Source: a virus. From it: a stretch of DNA of 64,000 nucleotides. The notes under the pieces were generated by a model. That model was given only the letters and a program-made list of their open reading frames with translations. It did no database searches and was not told the DNA's origin. This document shows, piece by piece, positions 46,641 through 64,000 of the stretch. The stretch spans positions 18,083 to 82,082 of the IMG/VR virus record IMGVR_UViG_3300016667_000726. The stretch is one strand, 5' to 3'. Every line of letters begins with the position of its first letter. Positions within the stretch are counted from its first letter, which is position 1. Both the position numbers and the translations under genes were made by a program.

Positions 46641-48134
46641 ATGTCTCAGCATCGCGTGATCGACTTCCACGACGACCTAGGCGCCTCGTTCTGCGCCACT
46701 GATCTCCGCCCTCCTGAGTTTCTCAAGACGGCGTCCTTCCGGGAGACGTATGAGCTCCACGACGGAGACTTCGCCCTGATCATCGTTGATGAGGACGGAA
46801 AGGAGCACCGCAAGTTTGCCTGCAACGACGCAGGCAATACGTGGCTATCCCTCTGGTACTTTGAGAATGTTGAGTCAGGATTGCCAGAGTACGCGAAGGT
46901 GGCCGCGGCGGAGAACCTCGCGACGTACGCGGGCATCCACGAGATCGACATGGAGGATATGTTCCCGCGCACGGCGGCTCTATGCTCCGAGCTTGGGATC
47001 AGCCCTTTCCGGCACCGCACCTGGCATGGGGACGGCAACCACTCCGAGAAAGTCGGGGCGGCCCTCCCCCAGACGGCAAGCTCTCAATTTTGGGAGAGAG
47101 TCAATCGTACAGGAGTAGACCCTTCCTGGCTTCAGCCTCCAACCCCTGCCTCCCTGAGGAGGAGCCAAACGCCCAAGGTTGCCAATCTCTCTGCGGTTGG
47201 CAACCTCGCTGGCAAGGTCCTTGCTAATCCGTGGGGCCGCCGTGCAGCAGGTGCCGCGACGGGAGCAGCACTTGGCGGAGTTGGCTCCGCAACGGCTGCC
47301 TATATGACCGGGGGCGATACAGGTAAAGCCTTTAGGCGGGGAGCGGTCGTTGGAGGTATTGGAGGTCTAGGTGTGGGCCATGCCTCGACCATGGGGATGC
47401 AAGTACCTCCAAAGGTAGCCTCCTCTCCCTACCGCCTAGATGAGAGGCGTGTCCTTGTGAAGTCTGCATCCTGCGCCCCAATCCCCACGGTCAAGGAGGC
47501 GTCCGCGCCTTCAATTCTAGAGAAGGTGGCTGAGGCAGATCGTCGGTGGGAGGACTTGAACCCATGGGAGCGTCGAGTCGTCGCACTGACTCTCGCCGCC
47601 GAGGAGCCCGGATTCGGAGAGTTCCCCGCGAAGGTCGCTTCCTACATGGGAGAGGAGATTCACCCGAACATCCTCGACAACATGCGATGGAGGGCCACTC
47701 GAGTTGCGCGCTCAGACGAGGACGCCGAGAACTACCTTCGCGTGGGGGCCATGGCTAAGGTCGGAAGCCTTGACCTTGAGGATGCCGTTGAGGCGGTATT
47801 CCTACTCGATGAGAAGAATGGCGTAGTTGTCCAGAATGGCTACGGACCGTCACTCCCCGATCCATACCTAGCCGTCTACGCTGGCCTAAAGAAGGAGGCC
47901 ATGTGGGCTTGGACTCGTGGTGACGCGTACATCAACGAGCACCAGCTACGCTCTTATGTCGGAACTGCCGCCGCAAAGATTCAGATGGGCGAGCTCTTCA
48001 CCGATGACCTGATCGACAAGTTCCGCAAGGACCCGATCAAGACGTTTGAGTCCTTGCCTTCTGAGCAGAAGAAGGTGATTGCGCGCATGACCTCCAGCAC
48101 CTCTGGTCTCATCACCGGATCGTTCCGCGCATGA
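46641..48134 (+). CDS. Putative internal head/scaffold-type protein with glycine zipper and K-x-A repeats
   Basis: GAGGAG SD; GAATGAALGGVG...GAVVGGIGGLGVG; 10 of 23 lysines are in K-x-A. Confidence 0.45.
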   Translation: MSQHRVIDFHDDLGASFCATDLRPPEFLKTASFRETYELHDGDFALIIVDEDGKEHRKFACNDAGNTWLSLWYFENVESGLPEYAKVAAAENLATYAGIHEIDMEDMFPRTAALCSELGISPFRHRTWHGDGNHSEKVGAALPQTASSQFWERVNRTGVDPSWLQPPTPASLRRSQTPKVANLSAVGNLAGKVLANPWGRRAAGAATGAALGGVGSATAAYMTGGDTGKAFRRGAVVGGIGGLGVGHASTMGMQVPPKVASSPYRLDERRVLVKSASCAPIPTVKEASAPSILEKVAEADRRWEDLNPWERRVVALTLAAEEPGFGEFPAKVASYMGEEIHPNILDNMRWRATRVARSDEDAENYLRVGAMAKVGSLDLEDAVEAVFLLDEKNGVVVQNGYGPSLPDPYLAVYAGLKKEAMWAWTRGDAYINEHQLRSYVGTAAAKIQMGELFTDDLIDKFRKDPIKTFESLPSEQKKVIARMTSSTSGLITGSFRA

Positions 48135-48934
48135 GCAATTTGTTCACAGACGAGCAGACGCATCCAATCCTATTGGTGCGTGAGCTCACTAAGAAGTACG
48201 GCCCAGACTGGATGACGTGGGGTCCTGTGGTCCTACGTCAGTCCATTCAGGCGGACTTCAACGTGACGGTGTCTCGTCTGAACATGAACAAGGCTCTAGC
48301 TGCCGGAGTTGTGGCTACGCAGGATTCCTTCTGGACAAGGTGGGAGGACTTCCTGTTTCTTGCCCAGGCTCTCAACGGCAACATCCCCATCCCGGGGGAG
48401 CTGGTTGAGATGTCCATCGGTCAGATGATGGTAGCCGTAGACATCGCCAATCAGATCCGCAGAGAGCTTAAGAGCCTATCCTACGTCCCAGAGTTCTCCG
48501 AGGATGTGGCCAGGTTCGTTGCGGCGCAGGCAAAGAATCAGGGAGTCTGGTATCTACCCGCCCCTCTAGACTTCGCGGCCAAGTACGCTGCCGGGATTAA
48601 GTATCGCTGCCGGTCGTGCGGGAACACAGATGAGCTGATGTTCCATGACGGTGTGTGCGACTCCTGCTCGGATCGCTTCATGGAAGGCGGGGTCAAGCAG
48701 TTGACGGCTTGGCGCCCTAATCCCCTCTACCTTAAGGATGCTAAGAACATTGAGGTGTTCGAGGAGAACCCAACGGATAAGGTACGCGCAAGACTAGACC
48801 AGGTGTTGGGAGGCAAGGATGTTACCCTTCAGGAGAACCAGGTCGATGCGTGCGTGGCGAGATTGCTAGTCGCGCAAGAGTATCTAACCCGCAGACAATC
48901 AGAGCTACGAGCACAAGTAGGAGCCCCTCCATGA
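48131..48934 (+). CDS. Hypothetical protein with C4 zinc ribbon
   Basis: CRSCG...CDSC; ATGA coupling. Confidence 0.55.
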   Translation: MSNLFTDEQTHPILLVRELTKKYGPDWMTWGPVVLRQSIQADFNVTVSRLNMNKALAAGVVATQDSFWTRWEDFLFLAQALNGNIPIPGELVEMSIGQMMVAVDIANQIRRELKSLSYVPEFSEDVARFVAAQAKNQGVWYLPAPLDFAAKYAAGIKYRCRSCGNTDELMFHDGVCDSCSDRFMEGGVKQLTAWRPNPLYLKDAKNIEVFEENPTDKVRARLDQVLGGKDVTLQENQVDACVARLLVAQEYLTRRQSELRAQVGAPP

Positions 48935-49836
48935 TCCACCCAGCCATCGTTGCAGCAGCCCGGATCGGGGTTGAGAAGCAGGCCGCATCTCTTGGAGAGT
49001 TGGCTGCCAGGGGAGGAGCTGCAATTGGCACTGCCCTCGGTGGACGTACTGTGGACGTAGCTCGATTTGCGCCGGCTGCACTAGGCGCCCTTGGTGGGGC
49101 CTATGTCGGCTCAATGCGCCCGGATGTTGGTGGAGACCAACAGCTCACCCGGGGACAGAAGATTCGGGGAGCACTGGCCGGAGGGCTAGCAGGCGCAGGC
49201 CTGGCGCAAATGACGGGGCTCGGTAGTACGATGGCGGCAGGGTTGGCAGATCGAGCGAGGAGAACGGGCCTCCACGGAGATCAGGCCATTGTCGAGGCGA
49301 TGCGGAATATGGGGAGGAGCGCAGGTAAGTCCGTCGCATCGATTCCGGGACGGGTTGGCCAAAGCATTGCTGGTGCTGGAAGGACGGTAGCGGATACGGT
49401 CATGAATCCCGTTCGCTCCGCCAAGGACATCGTGAGCGGAGGTGCCAGTCCGATCTACCGGGCCGTTACACAACCTGGCACGGTGGGTCAGCACCTCATG
49501 AGAGAGGCCACGAATCCTGTTGGCGCTGTGTTCCTGGGACTGTCGGGGCTCGACGCGGCTAGGAATATGGCTATGACTGAGGACCCAATGACCGGGCGTC
49601 GTCGTGGTTTTGGTGAGCGCGCACTAGGCTCCGCTGCCACACTGGGAACTGGCCTAGCGTATGGGGCACATGGCGCCACTGCTCCAGGTAATGCCCTGAC
49701 TAGGTTCATCGGTCAGACTGCTGGCTCAATTGCGGCCAGGGAAGGGGCCTCAGCGCTCGGTAGGCAGCTGGATAAGCTAAGGCCTTCCCAACCGCAGCCG
49801 CTGTCTAGTCAAGGCCAAGAAGAGGGTCCCGCATGA
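48931..49836 (+). CDS. Glycine-zipper-rich putative membrane-active virion protein
   Basis: ATG 48931 (ATGA coupling); EKQAAS, then several GxxxG tracts. Confidence 0.45.
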   Translation: MIHPAIVAAARIGVEKQAASLGELAARGGAAIGTALGGRTVDVARFAPAALGALGGAYVGSMRPDVGGDQQLTRGQKIRGALAGGLAGAGLAQMTGLGSTMAAGLADRARRTGLHGDQAIVEAMRNMGRSAGKSVASIPGRVGQSIAGAGRTVADTVMNPVRSAKDIVSGGASPIYRAVTQPGTVGQHLMREATNPVGAVFLGLSGLDAARNMAMTEDPMTGRRRGFGERALGSAATLGTGLAYGAHGATAPGNALTRFIGQTAGSIAAREGASALGRQLDKLRPSQPQPLSSQGQEEGPA

Positions 49837-51839
49837 ACGGGTTCATCTCCAGCGAGACTAACCGCTACAACCCCAGAGGTACGGAAGCGGGACGTGTAGG
49901 CCGCCAGTTTGGCCTGCGGTACCCATCCCCGTTCTTTGATGTAGCGTCGCAGTTCTTGCCGGAGAACATGACGCAGCTCCTTCAGTGGTGCCGCTACTAC
50001 TTTCTCACGAACCCCATCATTAACGTCGCTGTGTCGAAACTGGCCGAGTACCCGGTTACGCCGCTAGTCTTTGAGTCTCCAGATGAGACGATGCGGCAGA
50101 ACTACAAGACGCTTGAGTCTACGCTCCGCCTTCGTTCCTTCCAGATTGGGATTGGCCTAGATTACTTTGCGTATGGCAACGCGTTCGCCTCTGTCTACAC
50201 CCCATTTGAGCGCTGGCTAAAGTGCAGGGGTTGCGGGCGTCGTCATCTCGCCCGTGAGAACCGCTCCAGGTACACCTGGAAGAACTTTGAATTCCTGCTG
50301 CGCTGCTCAAAGTGCAGCCATCATGGTGCGGCAGATGTGGTGGACACCGCGATCCGCAGTGTTCGCGACATCAAGCTCGTCAGGTGGAACCCCGAAAACA
50401 TCAGCGTTCGGTACAACGAGGCAACGGGTAAGTCTCGGTACTACTACCGAATTCCCAAGAGCATTCGTAACGACGTCACGCTCGGGGACCTTGACACGAT
50501 CGAGGCTCTGCCGATGGACTTCATCCGCGCGGTGCAGGAGAAGCAGCAGCTCCTCTTTCACCCGGACGGGATGTACCATCTCAAGCGCGAAGGTCTTGCC
50601 CAGGCGGACCAGGGCTGGGGTACCCCGCTTATCTACCCACTCCTCAAGGACGCGTTCTACCTCCAGATCATGAAGAAGGCCCAAGAGGCGCTCTTGATGG
50701 AGCATGTCGTCCCGATGAGGGTCATGTTCCCTAGCAACCAGGGTATGCCTGAAGGCATCTTCGACAACCTGAACCTGGGCACCTGGCGTAGCCGCATCGA
50801 GACCGAAGTCAATATGTGGCGTCGCGACCCCAACTACATCCCGATCTTGCCGATCCCGCTTGGGTTCCAGCAGATGGGTGGCGATGCTCGTGCCCTGATC
50901 CTGCATCAAGAGTTCCGGCTACACTCTGAGCAGATGTTGGCGGGTGCGGGTATCCCCGTTGAGTTTGTCTTCGGCGGACTACAGTGGAGCGGAACCAACA
51001 CGTCGCTCCGCGCCCTTGAGAACATGTTCCTCGGCTACAACAAGCAGCGCGAGGAGCTCGTCGTTGATTTCGTCTTGGGCAAGATTGCCGACTTTATGGG
51101 TTGGCCCCGCATCAAGGCTAAGTTCGACAGGTTCAAGATGGCGGACGATCTACAGCGCGCCATGTTCATGTTCCAGCTTAACCAGGCCAACAAGATCTCT
51201 GACCGTAAGCTCCATGAGGAGCTCGGCACGGACTTTGATGTTGAGACTCGCCGGATCAAGGATGAGCTCGGTCAGCAGCTTGAGGCGCAGCGGCGCTCGC
51301 AGGTTGCTGCTGCCGACATCCAGGGTGAGGCGTCTCTCCACACTGGCAGGTACCAAGCCAGAGCTGCCGCAATTCAGCAGCGGGTTCAGATGGAAACCCA
51401 GATGGAGATGCAGGCCCTTCAGCAGCAACAGGCCGGAGGACAGCCTCCCCAGCAACAAGAGGCCCCCGCAGGACCAGAAAACAATCCTCAGGCGCCTAGC
51501 CCCGATGAGGGAGCGACCACAGAGCCCAAGGCTAGGCCATCTGAGATTCCAGTCGCGCTTTCGGGCATGACATCCCCGCTCCAGCAGGGAGCCGGTGGCA
51601 TGGATTTGCTCATGGTCGCTAAGAAGGCGGCGGCCTACATGCGCCAAGTCCGAGAGGCCGCAGGCGAACAGTCGATGTACCAAGAGCTACAGCGTCTACA
51701 GCTACAGGATGCCAACCTGTACAAGATCGTGGTTCAGCTCCTAAATGACTCTGGATCGAAGGAGAAGCCTTTGGATGGGGCAGCTAATCCTCGTCCGGCC
51801 GGTACTTCGCAGAAGGATGTTAGCCGTACTACTGGCTAA
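49833..51839 (+). CDS. Putative portal protein with inserted zinc ribbon
   Basis: 668 aa. Portal-like layout (NPIINVAVSKLAEYP; VRWNPENISV; MYHLKR...WGTPLIYPL; EQMLAGAGIPVEF), a CRGC...CSKC insert and a Q/P-rich tail. Confidence 0.55.
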   Translation: MNGFISSETNRYNPRGTEAGRVGRQFGLRYPSPFFDVASQFLPENMTQLLQWCRYYFLTNPIINVAVSKLAEYPVTPLVFESPDETMRQNYKTLESTLRLRSFQIGIGLDYFAYGNAFASVYTPFERWLKCRGCGRRHLARENRSRYTWKNFEFLLRCSKCSHHGAADVVDTAIRSVRDIKLVRWNPENISVRYNEATGKSRYYYRIPKSIRNDVTLGDLDTIEALPMDFIRAVQEKQQLLFHPDGMYHLKREGLAQADQGWGTPLIYPLLKDAFYLQIMKKAQEALLMEHVVPMRVMFPSNQGMPEGIFDNLNLGTWRSRIETEVNMWRRDPNYIPILPIPLGFQQMGGDARALILHQEFRLHSEQMLAGAGIPVEFVFGGLQWSGTNTSLRALENMFLGYNKQREELVVDFVLGKIADFMGWPRIKAKFDRFKMADDLQRAMFMFQLNQANKISDRKLHEELGTDFDVETRRIKDELGQQLEAQRRSQVAAADIQGEASLHTGRYQARAAAIQQRVQMETQMEMQALQQQQAGGQPPQQQEAPAGPENNPQAPSPDEGATTEPKARPSEIPVALSGMTSPLQQGAGGMDLLMVAKKAAAYMRQVREAAGEQSMYQELQRLQLQDANLYKIVVQLLNDSGSKEKPLDGAANPRPAGTSQKDVSRTTG

Positions 51840-51849
51840 GGAAGACGCC

Positions 51850-52170
51850 CTAGTCTTGGACTAGGAGCGTCAAGACGATGGAGCGCTCCCCGCAGAAGGA
51901 GCACTCCCCGTCTTTCCAATAGGGCCTACGGCTCCACGAGCCGAGATTGCGAGAGCAGGAACTGCAAGCCCATGCCCTAGCGATCTCTCCCAAGTCCTCC
52001 TCAAGCGCTTTACAGGCGCCACAGTCGACTAGGGAACATCGGCGCTGAATTACCGGGCAGTAGGCCAGCTTCTGGGGCAGCTCATGATCAGGTGACCTAG
52101 TAGGTAGAGGAGCAGGCTCTCCAAGACCATTGGCCTTGGATAGGGCTCGTTCTAATCTCCTAGTGTCCAC
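51850..52170 (-). CDS. Cys-rich zinc-finger protein (antisense)
   Basis: CP...C...CGAC...CSSC...CSFC; fills the gap between the portal and RNAP genes. Confidence 0.55.
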   Translation of the reverse strand: MDTRRLERALSKANGLGEPAPLPTRSPDHELPQKLAYCPVIQRRCSLVDCGACKALEEDLGEIARAWACSSCSRNLGSWSRRPYWKDGECSFCGERSIVLTLLVQD

Positions 52171-52321
52171 AGAAGACTCCCTGTCACGTTACCAAACCCG
52201 GTCAGGAACCCTGCCAGGAATGAGAACCCGAAGATCCATAGGGCCATTAGCGCCCCCCACCGATCAAGGGGGTGATAATCATTGCCAAGACTAGCTTGGC
52301 GAACTCCTCAATCGAACTCAT
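52152..52321 (-). pseudogene. Small two-TM membrane ORF split by a G6 run (frameshifted, phase-variable or assembly error)
   Basis: GGGAG SD + ATG 52321 gives MSSIEEFAKLVLAMIITPLIGGGR*; one extra G at 52253-52258 continues as ALMALWIFGFSFLAGFLTGFGNVTGSLLWTLGD*. Confidence 0.35.
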
Positions 52322-52396
52322 GATGGTACTCCCATGGCGGGGCGAGATATGCTACCTCCGCCATAGTACTTATGACCGAATCATGCTGAGGGATTG
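52322..52396. promoter_or_regulatory. Divergent promoter region upstream of RNAP
   Basis: ATGGCGG/CCGCCAT inverted repeat (52334-52364) around TATGCT, plus CTTATGACCGAATCATGCTGAGGG. Confidence 0.35.
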
Positions 52397-55300
52397 ATGG
52401 CCAACCTGCTCAACCCAGTCCAGGCGTTCGAAACTCTCAAGCAGCGGGTAGTCGAGGCATTTAGGGCTCACTTCCCGATCGAGGGTCAGCAGAATCGTCT
52501 TGAGCTGGTCGACATCTCCGTCGAAGACTCAAACGACCCAGGCTCTCCCTACCACATTGATAATATCAAGGCGCAGGAAGAGGCCAAGCTGAGCGGCGGG
52601 TCGTGGGACATCCCGGTCAAGGGCAGGATGCGGCTGGTCCGTAAGTCAGACGGGAAGGTGTTGGACGAGTCTAGGATCACGCTTGCCAAGATTCCCAAGA
52701 TCACGAGCCGCTACAGCTACATCGTGGAGGGCAATGAGCGCCAGCATGACGGGGTGTTTCGTCTACGCTCGCGTCCGTACCACTTTACGGCTGACAATGG
52801 AGTGATCAAGGCTCAGTGGAACATGGCCAAGGGTCTCGGCTTTGACCTGTTCATCGCCGACCGTAAGACCGGGTTCATCAAGATGAACATCGGTACCTCC
52901 AACTTGCCGGTGTACTCTGTGCTCAACGCGCTCGGCGTAAGTGACGAGGAGATGCGTCAGTCGTGGGGGTCTGAGACTTTTGAGGCGAACAAGAAGAAGG
53001 CAAAGCCTGACGACCTTCTCAAGATCACCAAGCTTATCAAGCGTCCTAAGAAGGGGGAGCCCGCTCCTACGGCGGCCTCTGCCAGAGCAGACGTAGCCAA
53101 CTACTTCACGACTCAGACTAAGCTTCGCCCTGACGCGATGTACTCGGCGTTTGGGATCAAGGACGATCATGTCAATGGGCAGAACCTGCTCATGTCGGCA
53201 ACACGCATCCTAGGCATTAGCCGAGGTACGACTGGAGAGGATGATCGTCAGTCCTTGGCTGCGAAGGACCTCACCAGCACTGAGGACTTCATCGCTGAGG
53301 CCATCACCAATCGATCCAGGGACATTGAGAAGAACATTCGAGAGAACGTCGACCGTAAGACCCGGGTTGCGGACGTCATCTCGAACTACCCCTACACCAA
53401 GATCATCCGCCAGACGTTCACCAACGCACAGCGTCCGGAGCAGACCAACCCTCTTACGTTCGTTTCCGGGTACCTCCGCACTACGATTCGTGGTGCCGAC
53501 TTCGGCGGTATCAAGGGTGAGCAGGTCAACCTCGACCGCGACCAGCAGATCAATCCATCCCACCTGGGATTCCTAGATGCGGTCCAAACTCCTGAGGGCA
53601 CAGAGACGGGTATTGCGCTCCATCTTCCCCTGGGCGTGAAGAAGGTCGATAAGGAGCTCAAGACCACAGTCTGGGATGTCAAGGCCGGAAAGAGTGTCGA
53701 CGTCACTCCTGCTGAGATGGAACGCGCAGTCGTAGCGTACCCAGATCAGGTCGAATGGAGGGGCGGAAAGCCGGTTCCTCGTGAGCCCATCGTTACGGTC
53801 TACGACAATGACCGCTCAACGACTCGCCGTCCGTGGGCAGACGTCCAGTACGTGCTGCCGTCAGCCAAGGCTACCCTTAGCTTCTCCGCCAATCTTGTGC
53901 CGTTCCTACAGAACAACAACGGCAACCGAGCCATGATGGCGGCGAAGCAACAGGAGCAGGCTGTCTCCCTCAAGTATCGTGAGGCCCCGCTAGTTCAGGC
54001 CAAGACTGATGGAGCGTTGACGTTTGATGAGTTGCTCGGGACCGTGTCCTCCCACCGAGCACCCGTAGACGGAGTAGTTGAGTCCGTCTCCGCAGATGAG
54101 ATCGTCATTCGTAGCGCAGATGGCAAGCGAGTCCCTGTCAGTATCTACAACCACTTCCCGCTCAATGGCGGGAAGACGATGCTGCATGCCGATCCCGTCG
54201 TCAAGAAGGGAGACCAAGTAAAGAAGCACCAGCTCATCGCAGACACGAACTACACAAAGGACGGCCGACTAGCTCTGGGGACCAACATTCGAGTTGCTTA
54301 CATTCCATACGAGGGACGTAACTTTGAAGATGGCATTGTCGTCTCCGAGAGCGCAGCAAAGAAGTTGACCTCCTCGCATCTGCATGAGGAGAGCCTCTTC
54401 CTGTACGAGGGCATGCAGGTCAACCGTAATCGGTGGAAGGACTACACAATCCCTGAGCGGTCTAGAGCGGACAGACTAGCAAAGCTGGATGAGAATGGCG
54501 TCGTGAAGGTCGGAGAGAAGGTCCGCCATGGCGATATCCTCGTCGCGGCGATTGCTCCTCAGCGGACGCTGTCTCAAGACCAACTCGACATGGCCTCGAT
54601 CCGCAAGTCTCTCGTTCGTGGATTTAGGGATTCCGCCCTGAGCTGGGAACACGACCACGAGGGTACCGTTGCTAAGGTTGTGCGCGCGAACAACAAGATC
54701 ACCGTCTTTGTGCGCACAGATGAGCCCCTAATCGTTGGCGATAAGCTCTCTGGCCGCCACGGGAACAAGGGGATCGTCTCTAGGATCATTCCCGATCATG
54801 AGATGCCGCACGACAAGGCAGGCAACCCAGTACAGATCCTGCTCAATGTAGCGGGCGTACCTAGCCGTATGAATGTGGGTCAGGCGCTTGAAACAGCTGC
54901 GTCGAAGATCGCCAAGAAGACCGGACAGACCTACGTCACCGAAAACTTCCAACCCGGCGTGGACTACACCCAGACAGTCCTCAACGACCTAAAGAAGCAC
55001 AACCTGAGTGACACTGAGGAGCTTACGGATCCAAAGACTGGGCGGTCACTAGGCCCAATCATGGTCGGCGATCAGTACATCATCAAGCTTCACCAGCAGG
55101 TGGAGAAGAAGATGACTGCCCGCTCCTATGGGGATCGCTACTCAGCCGTCTCAGGAGCTCCTCCAAAGGGGTCCGGGATCCCAGGTGGCGGACAGAAGCT
55201 CGATCAGCTGACGACCTACGCACTTCTGGCACATGGTGCTGTACACAACCTCAGGGAGGCGCAGACATACAAGTCTGACGTAGACCAAGAGGATGTATGG

Positions 55301-58300
55301 GATGCGCTGATTACGGGCAGGTCTGTTCCAGCTCCGCAGCCTAGCAAGGCTCTGGGCAACTTCCTCTCGTATGTGAAGGCCATGGGCATCCACGTCGGTA
55401 AGGAGGGAGACTCCTACGTTCTCTCCCCGATGACCGATAAGCAGTCTCTCGCCATCTCTAATGGCGAGATCAAGATGCCAAGCAAGACCCTAGCCGCCCG
55501 TGGACTTAGGACGATCGAGGAGGCCGGCGGCCTTTTCGACCCCAAGGTAACTGGCGCAAGGTTCACGGAGAACGGGGTTGAGGGCAAGTTCTGGGGACAC
55601 ATCAACCTAGCAACGAGAGTACCCAACCCGATGTTTGAGACCCCGATCACGATGATCCTAGGTCTCAAGGAGCAGGAGTTTGATGATCTCGTAGGCCCCA
55701 AGCTCATCAATGGTAGATCGGGGTTCGACATCCTTAATGAGCGCTTGGCCGCAGTGAACGTGCCTAAGGAGCTTGCTGAGGCGGAGGCATCGCTATCAAA
55801 GTTGTCTGGGCCTGCGCTAGCCCGTGCGTACCGCAAGGTCCGTTACCTAAGGGCACTGGCAAAGCTCAACATCAGCCCGCTAGATGCGTACACGAACAAG
55901 GTATTGCCGGTCATTCCGCCCGCGCTGCGTCAGGTCAAGCTGGACCCGACCGGTAAGCTCACCTTCGACGACCTCAACGCTATCTACCGAGTAGTTGGTC
56001 AGGTCAACGAGCAGTTGAAGGAAATGGATAAGGCAACTCCGCAGGAGACAATGCAGAAGTCCCGCTCGTTCCTATACGACGCTATTCGTGGCCTTCGAGT
56101 CTCCGGTATGGACCTTGGAGCTACCAAGAGTCAGCGTCACCACGAAGGACTGATGGAGAAGATGAGGGGCAGAAACCCCAAGTCCTCGTTCTTCCAGGAC
56201 TTCGTTGTAGGTCGGCGTCAGGACCTCTCGGGAAGATCTACGATCATCCCCGAGCCCGATATGGGCCTAGACGAGATTGGCATCCCAGTTCCAATTGCGA
56301 TGGAGATGTACAAGCCCTTCGTGATCCGGGAGCTGTCGAACTCATTGGGCGTGACCCCTGCTAGGGCGTGGCAGCTGTTCAAGACGAAGGATCCCACCGC
56401 TCGGCGTGCACTTGAGCGTGTCATCCAGCGCCGCCCTGTCATGGCAAAGCGGGATCCGGCTCTGCACCGGTTCTCAATCATGGCGTTCCAGCCCAGGCTT
56501 ATTTCTGGTAAGGCAATTGCCATCCACCCACTGATCACCGGAGGGTTCAACGCAGACTTCGATGGCGACACGATGGGCCTGTACGTCCCCGTGCACCAGA
56601 CTGCGGTGGACGAAGCCTTCAAGCTACTCCCGTCTCAGAATCTATTCTCGCCAACCCATGGCGGCCTGATGAACATTCCGAGTCAGGACTCCCTGCTTGG
56701 ACTGTTCCAGGCAACCGCATGGGGCAAGGATATCGGAAAGACGTACACGAAGGACGACGCAATCCGACTAGCTAAGGCTGGCACTATCAAGGCGACGGAT
56801 GTCATTACCGTGGACGGCAAGAAGACCACGGGAGGACGCCTCTGGCTTGCCTCGTGCCTCCCACTCGCCATGCGCGGGGATGAGCGCCTCCTCTACAACT
56901 CCTCCTTCCGTCTCGACAAGAAGGGGTTGAAGGACATGTTGACGCGAGTAGCCAAGGATTTCCAAAAGGACTTTGCCCAGACAGTCAACGACTGGAAGGA
57001 CATCGGCAACAAGCTCTCGTTCCTTCATGGGTCCTCGTTTAGCTTGCGGGACTTCCACGACGGTAAGGAGCTTCGCGAGGAGATCCTTGCTCCCTTCAAG
57101 AAGCAAGAGGCGGCCATCTACTCATCACGCCTGCCGAAGAAGGAGAAGGACGCCCAGATCGTACAGCTATACGAGCAGGCAAGCACCCTCCTTAAGCAGA
57201 GAGGGGAAGCCCGCTACAATCAGGGCGACAACCGGATCTACGAGTGGAAGGCATCTGGCGGACGCGGCAACTGGGAGCAGTTCTCTCAGCTCGTCATGGG
57301 CGCCATGCTCGTCAAGGATCCTACTAACGAGTACGTGCCGGTCCCCATCACCAAGTCATTCGGTGAGGGGCTGCCGTTCAGTCAGTACTGGGCATCTCTG
57401 CACGGAGCACGTAAGGGCACCCTAGATAGAGCATCAGGTACGGCCGAACCCGGCGCCCTCACGAAGGAGATCATCAATACGATGATCGACCACAAGATCT
57501 CCATGGACGACTGCGGCACAACCCAGGGCGTTGCCATGGATCCAAAGAACTCCGATGCTCTGGGAAGATACCTGGCTCCGGACCTCACCCTGAAGTCGGG
57601 CGAGGTTCTTCGGGCGGGAACTCTGATCGACAGCGCAGTCAGGGCAAAGATTGTGAATGCAGGTATGGACAAGGTGATTGTCCGCTCCCCTCTGCGTTGT
57701 CGGGCAGCCTCGGGTGTCTGTGCCAAGTGCTTTGGCCTAAATGAGAACGATAAGCTCCACCCCGTTGGTACGAACATCGGAGTCATCGCCGGACACGCTC
57801 TGGGAGAGCCGGTCATCCAGCTCACCATGCGTACCTTCCATACGGGCGGCGTAGGCGGTGGCGGCGTTGTCGACGCGTTTGCCAGAGTCAAGCAGCTCTT
57901 CAGCGTTCCTCAGAAGCTCAAGGGGCAGGCAACCTTGGCGACAGCTGAGGGTTCCATCACGCGTGTTGTGGCCAATCGAGAGCAAGGCGGGCACGACGTG
58001 TTTATCCGCGACTCAAAGGGAGTTGAGAAGGGGCACTACGTTCCGGCGGAACTTCAGCTGTTGCCAGGCACGACAGTAGGCGCGTCCGTCAAGCGAGGCG
58101 ATCCTCTCTCAACCGGACCTCGTAATCCTAATGAGATTCTCAAGCTCACGGGGAACATGAACGCAGTCCGCAGCTATCTCGTAGATGAGACAGACCAGGC
58201 GTACGGCGGACTCACCAAGCGAAGGAATATTGAGGCGGTTGTACGTGCGGCTACGAATCTAGCTCGTGTTGAGGCGGCTCCTGGGCACCCAGAATACCTG

Positions 58301-58624
58301 CGTGGTCAACATGTCCCCCTCAATGAGCTCGAGGATGTGAATCGTCGTGCTGCTGCGCAAGGAGTGCCGCTTGTCCTCTACACTCCAATCCTCAAGCCTA
58401 TGCAGCAAATGCCGACTGAGGGACGTGAGGACTGGATGGGTCGCCTGAACTTCCAGCGCCTCGAGAACACCTTCCGCGAGGGTGCTGCTCAGGGATGGGC
58501 ATCGGACATCCATGGTTCTACGATTGCAGGTATGGCACATGGTGCCCAGTTCGGGCTGCCTAAGGCTCCACCGCCATTCAGCGCTGCGGCCTTTGGCGCC
58601 CCTTCCTCTGGAGTTCGTAGATGA
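52397..58624 (+). CDS. rpoBC: Single-chain DNA-directed RNA polymerase, fused beta-beta'
   Basis: Beta motifs QTPEG, NRAMMA, NFEDGI, GDKLSGRHGNKG, PSRMNVGQ; beta' motifs GHINL, LPVIPP, GRRQDLSGRS, RDPALHR, NADFDGD (56549-56569), HGARKG, CRAASGVCAKCFG, GEPVIQLTMRTFHTGG. Confidence 0.95.
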   Translation: MANLLNPVQAFETLKQRVVEAFRAHFPIEGQQNRLELVDISVEDSNDPGSPYHIDNIKAQEEAKLSGGSWDIPVKGRMRLVRKSDGKVLDESRITLAKIPKITSRYSYIVEGNERQHDGVFRLRSRPYHFTADNGVIKAQWNMAKGLGFDLFIADRKTGFIKMNIGTSNLPVYSVLNALGVSDEEMRQSWGSETFEANKKKAKPDDLLKITKLIKRPKKGEPAPTAASARADVANYFTTQTKLRPDAMYSAFGIKDDHVNGQNLLMSATRILGISRGTTGEDDRQSLAAKDLTSTEDFIAEAITNRSRDIEKNIRENVDRKTRVADVISNYPYTKIIRQTFTNAQRPEQTNPLTFVSGYLRTTIRGADFGGIKGEQVNLDRDQQINPSHLGFLDAVQTPEGTETGIALHLPLGVKKVDKELKTTVWDVKAGKSVDVTPAEMERAVVAYPDQVEWRGGKPVPREPIVTVYDNDRSTTRRPWADVQYVLPSAKATLSFSANLVPFLQNNNGNRAMMAAKQQEQAVSLKYREAPLVQAKTDGALTFDELLGTVSSHRAPVDGVVESVSADEIVIRSADGKRVPVSIYNHFPLNGGKTMLHADPVVKKGDQVKKHQLIADTNYTKDGRLALGTNIRVAYIPYEGRNFEDGIVVSESAAKKLTSSHLHEESLFLYEGMQVNRNRWKDYTIPERSRADRLAKLDENGVVKVGEKVRHGDILVAAIAPQRTLSQDQLDMASIRKSLVRGFRDSALSWEHDHEGTVAKVVRANNKITVFVRTDEPLIVGDKLSGRHGNKGIVSRIIPDHEMPHDKAGNPVQILLNVAGVPSRMNVGQALETAASKIAKKTGQTYVTENFQPGVDYTQTVLNDLKKHNLSDTEELTDPKTGRSLGPIMVGDQYIIKLHQQVEKKMTARSYGDRYSAVSGAPPKGSGIPGGGQKLDQLTTYALLAHGAVHNLREAQTYKSDVDQEDVWDALITGRSVPAPQPSKALGNFLSYVKAMGIHVGKEGDSYVLSPMTDKQSLAISNGEIKMPSKTLAARGLRTIEEAGGLFDPKVTGARFTENGVEGKFWGHINLATRVPNPMFETPITMILGLKEQEFDDLVGPKLINGRSGFDILNERLAAVNVPKELAEAEASLSKLSGPALARAYRKVRYLRALAKLNISPLDAYTNKVLPVIPPALRQVKLDPTGKLTFDDLNAIYRVVGQVNEQLKEMDKATPQETMQKSRSFLYDAIRGLRVSGMDLGATKSQRHHEGLMEKMRGRNPKSSFFQDFVVGRRQDLSGRSTIIPEPDMGLDEIGIPVPIAMEMYKPFVIRELSNSLGVTPARAWQLFKTKDPTARRALERVIQRRPVMAKRDPALHRFSIMAFQPRLISGKAIAIHPLITGGFNADFDGDTMGLYVPVHQTAVDEAFKLLPSQNLFSPTHGGLMNIPSQDSLLGLFQATAWGKDIGKTYTKDDAIRLAKAGTIKATDVITVDGKKTTGGRLWLASCLPLAMRGDERLLYNSSFRLDKKGLKDMLTRVAKDFQKDFAQTVNDWKDIGNKLSFLHGSSFSLRDFHDGKELREEILAPFKKQEAAIYSSRLPKKEKDAQIVQLYEQASTLLKQRGEARYNQGDNRIYEWKASGGRGNWEQFSQLVMGAMLVKDPTNEYVPVPITKSFGEGLPFSQYWASLHGARKGTLDRASGTAEPGALTKEIINTMIDHKISMDDCGTTQGVAMDPKNSDALGRYLAPDLTLKSGEVLRAGTLIDSAVRAKIVNAGMDKVIVRSPLRCRAASGVCAKCFGLNENDKLHPVGTNIGVIAGHALGEPVIQLTMRTFHTGGVGGGGVVDAFARVKQLFSVPQKLKGQATLATAEGSITRVVANREQGGHDVFIRDSKGVEKGHYVPAELQLLPGTTVGASVKRGDPLSTGPRNPNEILKLTGNMNAVRSYLVDETDQAYGGLTKRRNIEAVVRAATNLARVEAAPGHPEYLRGQHVPLNELEDVNRRAAAQGVPLVLYTPILKPMQQMPTEGREDWMGRLNFQRLENTFREGAAQGWASDIHGSTIAGMAHGAQFGLPKAPPPFSAAAFGAPSSGVRR

Positions 58625-59640
58625 TCTTTGAGCCTGCGCCGCCAAAGCCATCTAAGAATGCTGAGAGGCCCGGCTCATCGGCAGGCAACGTCGTTAAGGG
58701 CGTGGCCACCGATGGCCTTAAGACGGCAGTGATCCAACGTGGGTTCATTGTTGGGGTGAGTCCCGACAAGTGGTCCATGACAGTCCAGACCATCTATGGG
58801 CGTAGAAGGATTGTGGATTGCTCAATCCCTAGCCTCTATGCTCATAGAAATAGAGGAGAGGGAATCCACTTCATCCCAGAGGTGGGGGCAGACGTATGGC
58901 TTTGCTTTCCCTCTGAGGACTCCCGGCCGTTCCCAATCTGCTACATGCCACCTCCCGGACAGGATGGAAGCTCAAAGGCCAACCGTCCAAACTTGACTCC
59001 AGGCTCCTACGCGATGCTCACGCGCGACGGAAATGGGATCAAGATCCACAGGGGCGGACTCGTAGAGATCGAGGCGACTCCCATCTGTAAGATGCTCTTT
59101 CTCCCACGAGAGGATGCAATCGTAACTCTCGCCCAGGAGTGGAGGCTGGAGACGCCTGTCGGCAGGATGCACTTCTACGCTGGTGAGCCAGGAGAGCTTC
59201 CTAATGATCAGCTAGCTGGGAGGTTCCTTGCCCAGTTTAAGCAAGAGGTAAATCAGAAGCACCACGCCGTTGACCTCTCTATTGGATCTGAGGTTGGGGT
59301 TGATGGTGTATTCCAGCTCGACATCTACGAGAGTGGGGACGTAGAGACTGAGGCACAGCGAACCAAGAAGCTCCAAGTCGTTGGCCAGAGCGACGGGGAT
59401 ATGCTGGTTGGGGTCGCGCAAGGAAAGGCTCTTCAAGTAGGCTCACTAACGGGTACGACACGATATCCAGTAGTCGTCAACGACTCGTTCTTTAGCGACG
59501 TGGCTGCTGCCTTCACCGAGGTAAAAGCGGTTCTGTCTGCGTTGGGGCTTCCAACAACCAACATCGACACGCTACTCGTCAACCTGCTGTTGCCCACAGA
59601 GAGCAATCCCTATCTATCGCAGTATTTGAAGGCAGAATAA
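58621..59640 (+). CDS. gpV/gp5-like baseplate spike protein (N-terminal OB fold)
   Basis: VQTIYG...[16 protein letters not shown]...PICY pattern resembles the gpV/VgrG OB-fold; ATGA coupling to RNAP. Confidence 0.55.
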
Positions 59641-61070
59641 TGGGAACCATCTCCGACAATCTCCGAGATGCGCTTGACGCTGCCATGCTTGACCGGATTG
59701 GAGCTGGGTACGCTCCTCAATCTGATGCGTTCAAGAGTGGACTACTTGGTGCGATTGGCGACGCGATGGAGGAGCGTAAGGACGACTTCGGCGGAGGAGG
59801 CGGCGGAGGCCAAGGGCCGCAAGGTCCTCAGGGAGCAGCAGGTCCGCAAGGCCCAGCAGGATCAACTGGAGCAACCGGCCCACAAGGATCTATAGGCCCT
59901 ACTGGTCCCGCAGGTTCTCAGGGGGCGACAGGTCCTCAAGGACCTCAGGGAGCAACTGGGTCTACCGGGAGTACGGGTGCTCAAGGATCAACTGGTCCGC
60001 AGGGGGCTACAGGCCCCCAGGGAGCTACAGGCCCCCAGGGCTCTAGCGGACCCCAAGGGGCATCTGGTGCCCAAGGAGCCACGGGGTCTCAGGGAGCTGC
60101 TGGGGCTCAGGGCGCAACTGGCGCACAGGGGCCGGCTGGTCCTGCAATTACGATCCTTGGGAGTGTGGCAACCCCGGCAGGCCTCCCGATATCAGGCTCA
60201 TTTGGGGACGCCTGGATCGTAGACTCCGATGGCGACCTATACGTTTGGAACGGTGTAGCCTTTTCCTCGGTGGGTCAGATTGTAGGCCCTCAAGGGCCCA
60301 CCGGCGCGCAGGGGGCGACTGGGTCGACCGGACCTCAGGGTGCGTCCGGTCCCCAGGGTGCAACTGGGCCACAGGGAGCAACTGGACCCACAGGGCCGCA
60401 GGGAGATATTGGTCCACAAGGACCTCAAGGAAGTACTGGTGCCCAGGGTCCGCAGGGCGACGCGGGATCTACGGGAGCGCAGGGATCGGTAGGTCCTCAA
60501 GGAGCTCAAGGTCCTACCGGAGCTACTGGTGCTCAGGGAGACATCGGTCCTCAGGGAGCAACCGGGGCACAGGGACCTCAAGGTGCTCAAGGTGCTCAGG
60601 GTGCCCAGGGATCGCAGGGAGCAACAGGTCCTGGATTTGCGTGGACAACTCAATCGTCGGTGCTGTCCACGACAGACAACAGCACCGGAGTCAGTACCTC
60701 AATTACCTTCTCGGTTACTTCAGGTAAGTCATACGCCATTGAGGTATTTGGCGCCGTTGCCTCCGCTGCTGGCACCACAGGCATTCAGTTTAAGTGGCAG
60801 GAGTCTGGAGGGGCGTCCTCTACCATCTGCGCCGCCAGGATCGTGTACGGTCTTACGGGCACTAGCTCCTCTGACTCGTATCTCTACGCGGCAAACGCGT
60901 GGACTACTGTGGGCACCGGCCCGGGCAACGCAAACGCGCCGCTCCACATTGGCCTAACCTATGTCTGTAGCGGTACGGGAACTCTGACACTGTGGATGCG
61001 CTCTGAAGTCAACGGGTCATCCGTAACCCTACACGCGGGCTCGACTGGAAGGTCGATTGCCTCCACATGA
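59640..61070 (+). CDS. Collagen-like triple-helix fibre protein
   Basis: Two Gly-X-Y tracts (about 37 and 39 triplets) separated by a small beta domain; beta-rich C-terminal head. Confidence 0.85.
59812..60632 (+). repeat. Gly-X-Y coding repeats ([12 protein letters not shown])
   Basis: Degenerate 9-nt periodicity visible directly; interrupted at about 60147-60284. Confidence 0.85.
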
Positions 61071-61176
61071 TCTTCATTTCGCTCCGTACCTGACGGGTCT
61101 ACAACCAAGATTCCTGATAGACTGACGACGGACCTCGCTCCGGTTAGTCTTGGCTCAACTCTGTAGGGGTTTGCCC

Positions 61177-62898
61177 ATGCCGCGCACCGCACATTCTTCT
61201 GCTCCACTCTTCCGTAGCGTTGCTCCGATTGAGACCTACGAGAAGGTGGCCTTCTTCGACAGCGGCATGTCCGCTAGTCTTGGCAAGGTGCCCGACGATG
61301 CAGAGAAGTGGCCAGCGCATGCGCTAAGTCGTGCCCATAAAGAGATGCCGTACCTCAGTGAGTTCGACGTCTCGATTGTCATGGAGCGCACCGACCCCGA
61401 GGCTGGCTACGGCATGGGATACCTCATGCTTCGTAATCGCTCAGCGCAGAACAAGCCCCAGGCAGAGATTGCGCGCCCGCAGAACTACGTTCGGGTACCG
61501 GTCATCATCAAGGAGCGTGAGCTCCTGCCCTTCAAGGTATTTGAGCTTGGCGGACGAATCTACCCGCTGAACAAGGCCCGTATTCGCCGCGCGCTGGTCA
61601 ACACCTCGATCTTCGATGGCGTGGGTTCGGCTCCTCGTCACTCCAAGAACCTCACGTTCGACCATCGTCCTCCGTACCAGCAGCGTCAGGGCTTCGGCAA
61701 GATCTACGATGCCACCGCCGGTCAGGCAGGTCTCGGCAAGATCTCAAGCGCTCCCTTGACTGCGAAGGCGCATGTTGCCCTCGCTCTGGAGGAGTTTGCG
61801 GAGAAGAAGGCGTACGGATTCATGCCGGTCCCCGCTAACGGCGGCAGTGACCCGTGGGTCGAGAAGTTCGCCGGAACTCCGTTCTATGACGAAGCTAAGG
61901 ATCTGTGCGCGGACGGGGCGCAGCGTCGCCTTGAGGACGCTCAGCGTGAAGCAGTGCGCAGCGCGAAGTTTGCCGCAGAGGCGCATCTCCGCGTTGAGGG
62001 CGCTACGCTTGAGGCAAAGCTGGCCGCGTTCAAGGCCGATACTGAGGATATCCCCGAGGAGGACACTCTCCGCAAGCTGTCATCCGCCCGGTACGGAGAT
62101 CCTAGCGCCCAAGGCTGCTCCTGGGACATGATGTTTGAGGGCACTCCGTTCTACTCAGATGCCCTGCACTACTGCGCCAAGGAAGCTCAGCTCCGTGCGC
62201 AGGACAACATGGACTGGGACAACGCATCATGGCGCGAGACTGAGCGCGCAAAGAGAATGCTCGATGCCAAGCTTGCCGCATGGAAGTACGAGCAGGAGAC
62301 CGGGCGCGAGTTCACTGGCCTACAGGCAAACGTCCACATCTCTCTCACCGAGGGAGGAGAGGAGCCAGGGCCGGTCAAGGCAGCTAGCGCTACTAAGATT
62401 GCCCGTATCTTTGGCGCCTCTGTCCCAAGGGAACTGGGGGAGTCCGCCCTAGACTACAGCAGGCGTCGGCGTAGCTTTGCAGACTACGTAGATCGTAAGC
62501 GTCAGGAGCAGCCCACCCCCATGTCGACTGCCCTTACCACCGGAGGGGGAGTAGGAGCGGGCCTAGGTGCCCTCGCAGGCCTGGCCTCTTCCAAGAGCCT
62601 CACTGGAGGACTTGCTGGGGGAGCGATCGGTGGCCTAGGTGGGATGGCCCTAGGGGCGCTAATGCAGGCATCCGACGCCGCCAAGATTCGCAAGGCACAG
62701 GCACTGCATGGAGATTCTGAGGGCATTGACTCTGAGCTGGATCGGCAGATCATCAAGCAAGTGCGGGGCAAGCAGCTAGCGCGCCGCATGAATGAAGATC
62801 TTCGGCACCGACAGATCCTACAAGCGATTGACCGCAGAAATAGTCAGTACCCTGAAGGCCTATCATACGGCTCGTACGCCCCATTTGGGCGCTACTGA
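61177..62898 (+). CDS. Putative internal virion protein with internal duplication, glycine zipper and K-x-A motifs
   Basis: ATG 61177 has an AGGGG SD; FAGTPFY/FEGTPFY duplicated module; GGGVGAGLGALAG...GGLAGGAIGGLGG. Confidence 0.5.
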   Translation: MPRTAHSSAPLFRSVAPIETYEKVAFFDSGMSASLGKVPDDAEKWPAHALSRAHKEMPYLSEFDVSIVMERTDPEAGYGMGYLMLRNRSAQNKPQAEIARPQNYVRVPVIIKERELLPFKVFELGGRIYPLNKARIRRALVNTSIFDGVGSAPRHSKNLTFDHRPPYQQRQGFGKIYDATAGQAGLGKISSAPLTAKAHVALALEEFAEKKAYGFMPVPANGGSDPWVEKFAGTPFYDEAKDLCADGAQRRLEDAQREAVRSAKFAAEAHLRVEGATLEAKLAAFKADTEDIPEEDTLRKLSSARYGDPSAQGCSWDMMFEGTPFYSDALHYCAKEAQLRAQDNMDWDNASWRETERAKRMLDAKLAAWKYEQETGREFTGLQANVHISLTEGGEEPGPVKAASATKIARIFGASVPRELGESALDYSRRRRSFADYVDRKRQEQPTPMSTALTTGGGVGAGLGALAGLASSKSLTGGLAGGAIGGLGGMALGALMQASDAAKIRKAQALHGDSEGIDSELDRQIIKQVRGKQLARRMNEDLRHRQILQAIDRRNSQYPEGLSYGSYAPFGRY

Positions 62899-62908
62899 GG
62901 AAAGAACT

Positions 62909-64000
62909 ATGATCAGCCTAAGCATTACTGAGTCTGACCGGGTCCCCTCATCCACTATTACCTCGAAGGTGAAGCAGTGGAACGTGGCACCGGGTGTCGT
63001 CCCTAGCTCGCTCGTTTACTTTAGGATTCGTGGCGGTCAGGGATACATTATCGGTGTGCCTGCGGATACGGCATCTAAGCTCCTCAAGGAGAAGGATGCT
63101 ACGAAGCTCCGCAAGATGATGGCCTCGATGATTGTCCCAGAGATGCAGGCTGCTCGCTCTGGCATGCCCTCGCCGGGAAAGATGCTCCTCCTAATGCAAT
63201 CTGGGGACTCCATCGCACAGGTGACTCAGTCTGCGCCTGGCATGGGTAAGAGGGCAAATCTGGCAAGCTACGTCGTCCCTACCCTGACAGGGGCTGCGGT
63301 CGGGACTATCGGCACAGCGGCGACAAATTACGCCGCAGGTAGAGACGTCAGGCAGGGCCTGGGCAGGGCTGCCTTAGTTGGAGGGGCATTTGGCGCCGGC
63401 ACCCACGGCCTAGGGCGTCTCTCCTCAAAGGTGCAGGGTATGGTCGGGAAGTCAGCTCCCGCGACACCTCTCCCCACGACAGCCCCGGCCTCACAACCTC
63501 AAGTACGCGCGCCGTCCTCTACTCCGCCTCCTCCAGACCCTGGACACTGGGGCGGCGCAAGTTGGTTTGATAAGGGGGCAAGCTCTAGCTTCATCCACTT
63601 CTCAAAGATAGCCGCAGAACTTTCGACCAGGGCGAGGAATCGTCTTGGGGAGGGCGAGTTCGCACTTCCTGGAAGGCGCTACCCGATTCACGATCGCCCC
63701 CACGCCCGAAATGCTCTTGCTCGGGTCGCTCAGCATGGAACTGCCAGTGAGCAGTCCCAGGTGCAGAAGGCAGTTCATGCGCGCTTTCCCGATATTGGCG
63801 ATGAGAAGAAGGCCGACTCGCCCTCCTCCAAGACTGACTGGCAGAGGGCAACTCCACTAGAGAAAGGTTTCCTCCTCTCCGGACTCGGAGCAAACCTAGG
63901 AGCGCTAGGGATGCGTACCGCAGACCTAATCCACGATATGCGAGGCAAGGGTCCGCTCTTCAGAGAGCGTACAATGATGCTTCCGCATGCAGTGGGGCTT
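62909..64000 (+). CDS. Modular virion-associated protein (3' truncated; absent from the ORF track)
   Basis: ATG 62909 after GAGGAAA; frame open to the window end. Glycine zipper after KRAN; after KIAA a module RNRLGEGEFALPGRRYPIHDRPHARNALARV resembling small conserved phage domains (DUF6582-like, unverified). Confidence 0.7.
   Translation, partial: MISLSITESDRVPSSTITSKVKQWNVAPGVVPSSLVYFRIRGGQGYIIGVPADTASKLLKEKDATKLRKMMASMIVPEMQAARSGMPSPGKMLLLMQSGDSIAQVTQSAPGMGKRANLASYVVPTLTGAAVGTIGTAATNYAAGRDVRQGLGRAALVGGAFGAGTHGLGRLSSKVQGMVGKSAPATPLPTTAPASQPQVRAPSSTPPPPDPGHWGGASWFDKGASSSFIHFSKIAAELSTRARNRLGEGEFALPGRRYPIHDRPHARNALARVAQHGTASEQSQVQKAVHARFPDIGDEKKADSPSSKTDWQRATPLEKGFLLSGLGANLGALGMRTADLIHDMRGKGPLFRERTMMLPHAVGL

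Follow-up and report, generated by a model that had tools for sequence, protein, structure and literature searches.

The window analysed here is a 64,000-nucleotide stretch (bases 18083-82082) of one linear 123,674-bp viral contig, IMG/VR record IMGVR_UViG_3300016667_000726, estimated by CheckV to be 67% complete. Our subject is a short amino acid motif, Lys-x-Ala (K-x-A), that recurs in the proteins of the phage head module, and a candidate prohead protease that may recognize it. All window features named below lie on the + strand; coordinates beyond the window are extrapolated, with contig position equal to window position plus 18082. The region of interest begins with open reading frame (ORF) 46641 (46641..48134), a head-module protein of 497 amino acids (aa), followed by ORF 48131 (starting at 48131, 267 aa), ORF 48931 (48931..49836, 301 aa), a Gly/Ala-rich glycine-zipper protein, and the portal protein (49833..51839, 668 aa), which shares 31% identity with the portal of Salmonella phage Arash. 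A fused beta-beta' RNA polymerase (RNAP; 52394..58624, 2076 aa) is included as context and not as a substrate; it precedes a baseplate-like ORF (starting at 58621), a collagen-repeat fibre protein (starting at 59640), the head-module protein ORF 61177 (61177..62898, 573 aa) and ORF 62909, which runs from 62909 to the window end at 64000 and on to extrapolated position 65146 (745 aa in full). Pfam and PHROGs searches of the nine in-window proteins identified only the RNAP and the collagen repeats and, weakly, a DUF6582 and a baseplate OB domain. Past the window end, the head-assembly operon contains the large terminase (71573), a K-x-A-S-rich ORF of 308 aa (74832-75758), a protease ORF of 600 aa (76805-78607; contig 94887-96689), an acidic ORF of 297 aa (starting at 78678), ORFs of 562 and 128 aa (starting at 79904 and 82387) and, at 83385, the major capsid protein (28% identity to the Arash capsid protein, gp226).

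Ten of the 23 lysines in ORF 46641 stand in a K-x-A (KTAS, KFAC, KVAA, KVAN, KVAS twice, KSAS, KEAS, KVAE and KEAM), as a first-pass annotation had counted from the letters of the window. Only 2.9 are expected (shuffle P=0.0004); expected counts here and below are based on the composition of each protein, with an additional 5000 shuffles for ORF 46641. The further copies listed by that annotation were likewise found, namely EKQAAS in ORF 48931, EKVAF, EKKAY, VKAAS and TKIAR in ORF 61177, and KRAN, KGAS, KIAA and KKAD in ORF 62909. Observed and expected counts are 7 and 2.4 for the portal, 9 and 4.4 for ORF 61177, and 6 and 2.4 for the in-window part of ORF 62909. Beyond the window they are 11 (of 15 lysines, ten of them K-x-A-S) and 2.4 for the 308-aa ORF, 11 and 3.1 for the protease, 9 and 3.1 for the acidic ORF, 11 and 5.6 for the 562-aa ORF, and 4 and 0.7 for the 128-aa ORF.

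Since the motif had been picked post hoc, all 400 patterns of the form a.b and all 8000 of the form a.bc were scanned. The head module was taken as 26 + strand ORFs, including those in the part outside the window, and the control set as the other 86 ORFs of the contig, which encode replication and tail functions and the RNAP. K.A is the top pattern of 400 in the head module (107 versus 49 expected, P=5e-13), and K.AS is the top pattern of 8000 (33 versus 3.5, P=5e-21), on par with the G.QG repeat of the collagen-like protein. The 86 control ORFs are not enriched for K.A (109 versus 125.5). Within the window, K.A ranks first among the 400 patterns once the RNAP and the collagen-like protein have been excluded (37 versus 15.1, P=1e-6), with K.AS and K.AA ranking second and third. 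Over all nine in-window ORFs together it ranks only 12th because the RNAP is depleted, with 3 copies versus 12.45 expected (P=0.0016) and no K-x-A-S/A. The enrichment thus survives correction for composition and an unbiased scan, and is confined to head-module genes; a comparison with replication genes and shuffled sequences had been proposed by the first-pass annotation.

The signal is specific in register and in residue. Other spacings are flat in the head module (observed/expected: KA 48/49, K..A 54/49, A.K 47/49), and arginine does not replace lysine (R.A 68/67.5). The residue after Ala is Ser in 33 and Ala in 23 of the 107 head-module copies, and the logo reads [A/E]-K-[V/T/E/I]-A-[S>A]-[A]; [A/E/V]-K-x-A-[S>A>G] describes the motif better than K-x-A alone. 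Codon use in the motif is diverse (all four Ala codons; Ser encoded by TCN 24 times and AGY nine times), which indicates selection on the protein; a nucleotide motif acting at the DNA level was considered and rejected on this ground. Placement is also biased: 17 of the 30 ORFs of the head region have a K.A within the first 45 aa (6.0 expected), compared with 13 of 82 elsewhere (12.8 expected). In many head proteins the first copy falls within residues 11-37. The major capsid protein is among these, with K-E-A-A at residue 28, and the capsid proteins of Arash and Vibrio phage D69 have K-E-A-G at residue 27.

ORF 46641 consists of a disordered N-terminal stretch, a helical module, a glycine zipper and a C-terminal helical domain, and its motifs are conserved in position. 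The KTAS site at K29 (46725..46736) lies in the disordered N-terminus, where the predicted local distance difference test score (pLDDT) is below 50, and is a candidate propeptide cut; 17 of 20 orthologues have K-x-A in this column. The KVAN site at K179 (47175..47186) directly precedes the glycine zipper and is kept in 16 of the 20. A cluster of four sites (KVAS K258, KSAS K274, KEAS K285 and KVAE K295; 47412..47534) lies between the zipper and the C-terminal helical domain in columns conserved among the orthologues. The structure model has low confidence at residues 1-57 and 124-287, and K258-K285 fall within a linker of low confidence whose end is near residue 287. In all, 35 orthologues encoded upstream of the portal in IMG/VR loci, at 20-25% identity, contain 384 K.A versus 105 expected and 81 K.AS versus 6.4. 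An alignment of 20 sequences at the same level of identity has 12 columns with K-x-A in at least eight sequences, and conservation is 0.57 for motif lysines versus 0.27 for other lysines. As controls, orthologues of ORF 48131 have no K.A excess (23 versus 29.5), and portal orthologues have 158 versus 125. ORF 46641 is a probable multiply-cut substrate.

The first-pass annotation had proposed a protease of different specificity encoded outside the window, and a search of the rest of the contig located a homologue of head-maturation proteases 12.8 kb past the window end. The 600-aa ORF matches phrog_18299, "head maturation protease" (E values of 7e-6 and 2e-5), as do 24 of the 27 members of its family (best E=2e-7), and it is the sole head-maturation-protease locus found in the contig. 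Peptidase_S78 (PF04586, the HK97 gp4 family) and ClpP (PF00574) have no match at E<=1 in the contig, which is an estimated 67% complete, and Peptidase_S77 (PF03420, the T4 gp21 family) has no match in it either. Matches of the 600-aa protein by tblastn include genes of Vibrio phage D69, Arash gp222, phage G gp19 and "capsid maturation protease" genes of Gordonia phages. Identity with Arash gp222 and phage G gp19 is 25-34% over the protease domain. Phage G gp19 is listed as a head maturation protease (PMC12484599). Arash gp222, annotated only as "structural protein", is a homologue of the head-maturation protease at 34% identity over 230 aa.

Across 108 full-length homologues, the conserved part of the protease spans residues about 40-290 and is followed by a hypervariable linker. 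K-x-A-[S/A] flanks this conserved part: it occurs in 92 of the 108 at reference position 37 and in 77 at position 292, where the conserved domain ends and the linker begins, with further columns at positions 381 (48 of 108) and 576 (28 of 108). The family total for K.AS is 298 versus 22 expected. In the AlphaFold model of the protease (pLDDT 62.9), residues 1-43 and 289-300, which hold both flanking sites, are disordered. Two candidate catalytic residues, H138 (HRFRHHVNKD) and S194 (DTSMG), are invariant in 27 homologues, and Arash gp222 and phage G gp19 have them as well; the model places each in a segment of low confidence, and neither is alignable to known catalytic residues. A search of PDB sequences with the protease profile returned no match.

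Two further features of the protease were observed. Its domain contains an invariant C-x-x-C ... C-x-H cluster (C204, C207, C218 and H220), which Arash gp222 and phage G gp19 share (CSICG) and which suggests a zinc-binding insert of a kind that T4 gp21 is not known to have. Several homologues are about 400 aa longer (about 1010-1046 aa) and match the Hint/intein and LAGLIDADG Pfam families PF13403, PF14890 and PF14528, so that the prohead protease gene of some relatives appears to have acquired inteins.

Motif placement at domain borders, also claimed in the first-pass annotation, holds for K179 and K258/K274/K285 around the glycine zipper of ORF 46641 and extends to ORF 62909. In the latter, KRAN (K114, 63248-63259) precedes a glycine zipper, KGAS (K222, 63572-63583) lies 11 residues upstream of a DUF6582-like module, KIAA (K233, 63605-63616) abuts that module, and KKAD (63806-63817) follows it. 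The N-terminal EKVAF site of ORF 61177 (61243-61254) is retained by distant homologues in the form E-K-x-A-S, and the pair KAAS/KIAR (62377-62406) lies about 40 residues upstream of a glycine zipper in this protein. The same protein contains an internal duplication of a unit of ~60 aa, W..F.GTPFY...C...AKLAA[F/W]K, at residues about 225-290 and 315-372 (window 61800-62300). ORF 48931 has a single N-terminal KQAA-S site (48976-48987) before its glycine zipper and no overall enrichment (1 versus 0.9); here the placement alone is suggestive. The portal C-terminal tail holds KKAA/KAAA (51621-51635), the sole portal copy with a small residue after Ala, and a Gln/Pro-rich low-complexity linker at residues about 500-560 (window 51300-51500) separates the portal core from this tail. 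Outside the window, the ten K-x-A-S of the 308-aa ORF are spaced about 10-55 residues apart, and this protein is likely a scaffold or core component that can be degraded. Arash gp220 (307 aa) and Vibrio phage D69 0268 (311 aa) are counterparts of the same size and position; BLAST similarity between the 308-aa ORF and either one is not detectable.

The DUF6582-like module points to the bond that may be cut. This unit of 61 aa (ORF 62909 residues 236-296; 63614..63796) has K-x-A on both sides and matches Pfam DUF6582 (E=7e-4) and phrog_16160 (E=2e-17). It is highly portable, occurring in >100 proteins at 55-90% identity, in fusions with NUDIX, helicase, DnaJ and peptidase domains and with many unnamed ones. 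Among 56 module proteins, 18 have K-x-A exactly at -3 to -1 of the module (chance about 1% each), eight begin with the module right after the initiator Met, eight more distant sequences have x-E-K directly before it, and 22 have other residues there; K-x-A occurs within 12 residues after the module in 31. Because S-E-L-T follows K-x-A in some proteins and Met in others, the two contexts appear equivalent, which puts the module boundary, and with it the predicted scissile bond, after Ala. The most likely scissile bond predicted from these alignments has Lys at P3, Ala at P1 and Ser, Ala or Gly at P1'. The module itself may be a head-cargo or targeting unit whose edge motifs are lineage-specific, ending in K-x-A here and in x-E-K in distant sequences.

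The same enrichment occurs in cultured relatives. In Arash (gp218-225 and gp199), K.A is found 45 times versus 20.7 expected and K.AS 12 times versus 1.5, each the top pattern, and in the head module of Vibrio phage D69 the counts are 50 versus 20.7 and 18 versus 1.66, again each at the top. In phage G (gp11-28), K.A is the top a.b pattern (31 versus 17) at nominal significance only, weaker than in Arash and D69, and K.AS ranks third (6 versus 1.16). E-K-V-A-S directly follows the protease domain in phage G gp19, and across gp19 and Arash gp222 the sequence at this place is E-K-V-A-S/N. Mass spectrometry (MS) of Arash virions identified the RNAP homologue encoded beside the portal as the most abundant virion protein, and the same paper names neither a protease nor cleavage (PMC10585845). 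Neither the Arash nor the phage G paper describes a cleavage specificity for gp222 or gp19 (PMC10585845, PMC12484599). A 2026 review of jumbo phages gives S/A/G-x-E alone as the cutting rule, and our literature searches found no published description of a K-x-A rule.

We consider it probable that the phage's own prohead serine protease recognizes K-x-A-(S/A/G), in most cases with Ala, Glu or a hydrophobic residue before the Lys, and cuts its substrates at this motif. From the sequences we infer that cutting occurs, and at which bond and sites. All of the cutting proposed would take place inside the procapsid. The protease would free itself by cutting on both flanks of its catalytic domain, at K37 and K292; many head proteins, the major capsid protein (K28-E-A-A) among them, would lose N-terminal propeptides of about 11-37 residues; scaffold-like or internal proteins, such as ORF 46641 and the 308-aa ORF with its ten K-x-A-S, would be chopped into small pieces; and modules such as the DUF6582-like unit would be released from ORF 62909. 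The first-pass proposal of K-x-A cutting by an enzyme from outside the window is thus supported, in that every computational prediction that could be tested agreed with it. Its term "polyprotein" suits ORFs 46641 and 62909 better than the other ORFs it listed, and some of its K-x-A are likely not sites.

Several observations weigh against this interpretation or limit its reach. The Arash virion table gives 96-100% coverage for proteins rich in K-x-A-S (PMC10585845), which, taken literally, would need peptides spanning the Ala-Ser bonds; the column is not readable literally because it also shows 100% for proteins with two unique peptides. The 27 protease family members have no Pfam hit, and hhalign of the protease profile against T4 gp21 gave no match (probability 0.2%). 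Foldseek with the protease model found no PDB hit at E<=0.001, with many weak rows for herpesvirus proteases, and VIA-align results are within noise (varicella-zoster virus protease Z 3.5, rank 1; T4 gp21 Z 3.0, rank 4; human cytomegalovirus protease Z 2.9, rank 6), so that any fold assignment from the model is weak. In ORF 46641, six to seven of the ten sites lie in low-confidence regions that hold 46% of residues, which is not a significant excess, and three conserved K-x-A (K86, K295 and K331) are within helices predicted for folded modules. Five portal K-x-A, followed by E, F, Q or D, are doubtful as sites, and those of the portal core are probably incidental, as is the KLAA[F/W]K pair of ORF 61177. 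The RNAP depletion, which would fit motif avoidance, is limited to this phage and its closest relative, whose fused RNAP has 7 versus 14.3 (combined P about 2e-4); ten other RNAP orthologues are not depleted (143 versus 145). It may be due to chance, or an enzyme packaged in the virion may avoid the protease motif.

Other explanations of the motif were weighed against these data. The protease code could be right and the cut placed after Lys instead of Ala, in a trypsin-like manner with Lys at P1 and x-A-S following. The Lys is invariant and lineage-defining and Arg is not tolerated, other lineages have x-E-K directly before the DUF6582-like module with Lys at P1 (8/56), and a cut after Lys would be invisible in tryptic proteomics, which fits the high Arash coverage. 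Against a cut at that position, the module starts three residues past the Lys, exactly after Ala, in 18/56 proteins, and its N-terminal versions start with Met and S-E-L-T, matching the S-E-L-T after K-x-A. The preference for small residues after Ala (33 Ser and 23 Ala of 107) also fits a P1' position, and known relatives follow a P3-x-P1 rule, L/I-x-E and A-x-E (PMC10052503). We regard a cut after Lys as unlikely. A role without any cutting, with K-x-A-S as a short docking or capsid-targeting motif that recruits proteins into the procapsid by binding to the scaffold, portal, capsid interior or protease, would account for the restriction to head proteins and the frequent position near N-termini, as expected of a targeting signal; the T4 capsid-targeting sequence combines targeting and cutting. 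A pure tag would not be expected in ten copies in one 308-aa protein or on both flanks of the protease's own domain, four residues are very short for non-catalytic binding, and N-terminal module variants that begin exactly after the motif mark a boundary and not a binding patch. We hold docking alone to be improbable.

The remaining explanations require no protease. K-x-A could belong to the architecture of helical modules that several proteins share, such as a helix start K-x-A-x-x-Y-F, and could have spread by module shuffling. Some copies do lie in conserved helical contexts (lrKYACvD, qvKAASaYFde), and two of the nine in ORF 61177 (KLAA at K281 and K365) come from its internal duplication. 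The flanks of the motif, however, have no detectable similarity among the protease termini, the capsid N-terminus, the glycine-zipper proteins and the acidic scaffold-like proteins; many copies are in disordered linkers, and helical proteins elsewhere in the genome are not enriched. This origin seems very improbable to us. Chance or a composition artefact of Ala/Lys-rich proteins might be suspected, as several head proteins contain 12-18% Ala. The counts are corrected for the composition of each protein, only the i,i+2 register is enriched and Arg shows no excess, and the P values of 5e-13 and 5e-21 would be multiplied by 400 or 8000 on correction. The pattern is replicated in Arash, in Vibrio phage D69, more weakly in phage G, and in 35 and 108 metagenomic orthologues. 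The whole-module pattern scan, together with the register and Arg controls, refutes this explanation, to which we give almost no credence.

If K-x-A is indeed cut, an enzyme of a well-known kind would have a new specificity. To our knowledge, head-protease rules are known for few phages (T4, phiKZ/SPN3US and HK97-like), and those of large phages end in Glu. The system resembles that of T4 gp21 (MEROPS S77) in having a head-module protease and a three-residue motif of P3-x-P1 style that is found in propeptides at the N-termini of the capsid protein and many other head proteins, occurs in many copies in degraded scaffold or core proteins, and flanks the protease itself. It differs in the motif, L/I-x-E in T4 and Lys-x-Ala here, and in the enzyme, which here has 600 aa with a long, motif-studded C-terminal extension and the invariant Cys/His cluster. 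With phiKZ gp175 and SPN3US gp245 (S/A/G-x-E and A-x-E), it would share extensive processing of many internal head proteins, with several motifs per propeptide, a preference for Ser at P1', and a virion-packaged RNAP in the same head, here on the basis of the Arash MS data. SPN3US gp245 cuts after A-X-E with a P1' preference for Ser and has multiple motifs in propeptides (PMC10052503). Differences from these phages are the predicted P1 residue, Ala and not Glu, the basic P3 residue, and the lineage, which is Arash-like or phage G-like and not Chimalliviridae.

Herpesvirus assemblin (MEROPS S21) cuts (V/L/I)-x-A before Ser at its maturation and release sites. The Ala-Ser bond, predicted here, and the release of the protease domain from a longer precursor by its own cuts would be common to both systems. 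Assemblin is not known to have an invariant P3 Lys, shows no sequence similarity to the enzyme described here, and scored no better than noise as a structural match (Z 3.5).

For Arash and phage G, MS data on virions are already available, so the K-x-A rule is cheaply testable. If true, it would identify Arash gp222 as that phage's unannotated protease, offer a comparison point with the Ala-Ser specificity of herpesvirus assemblin, and supply an orthogonal pair of protease and site for phage engineering. A wider proposal, which we offer tentatively as possible rather than probable, is that Lys-x-Ala before Ser is an old, clade-wide specificity of the head proteases of a large group of mostly uncultured phages (Arash-like phages, Vibrio phage D69 and phage G-type megaphages), that its Ala-Ser bond mirrors assemblin and predates the Glu-specific T4 and phiKZ enzymes, and that mature head contents could be read from sequence, with the DUF6582-like module as a portable head-cargo unit released by lineage-specific cuts, after K-x-A here and after x-E-K elsewhere. 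If the K-x-A rule is true, the mature virion proteome of a large uncultured clade, as well as of Arash, Vibrio phage D69 and phage G, would become predictable in its propeptides, released modules and degraded scaffolds.

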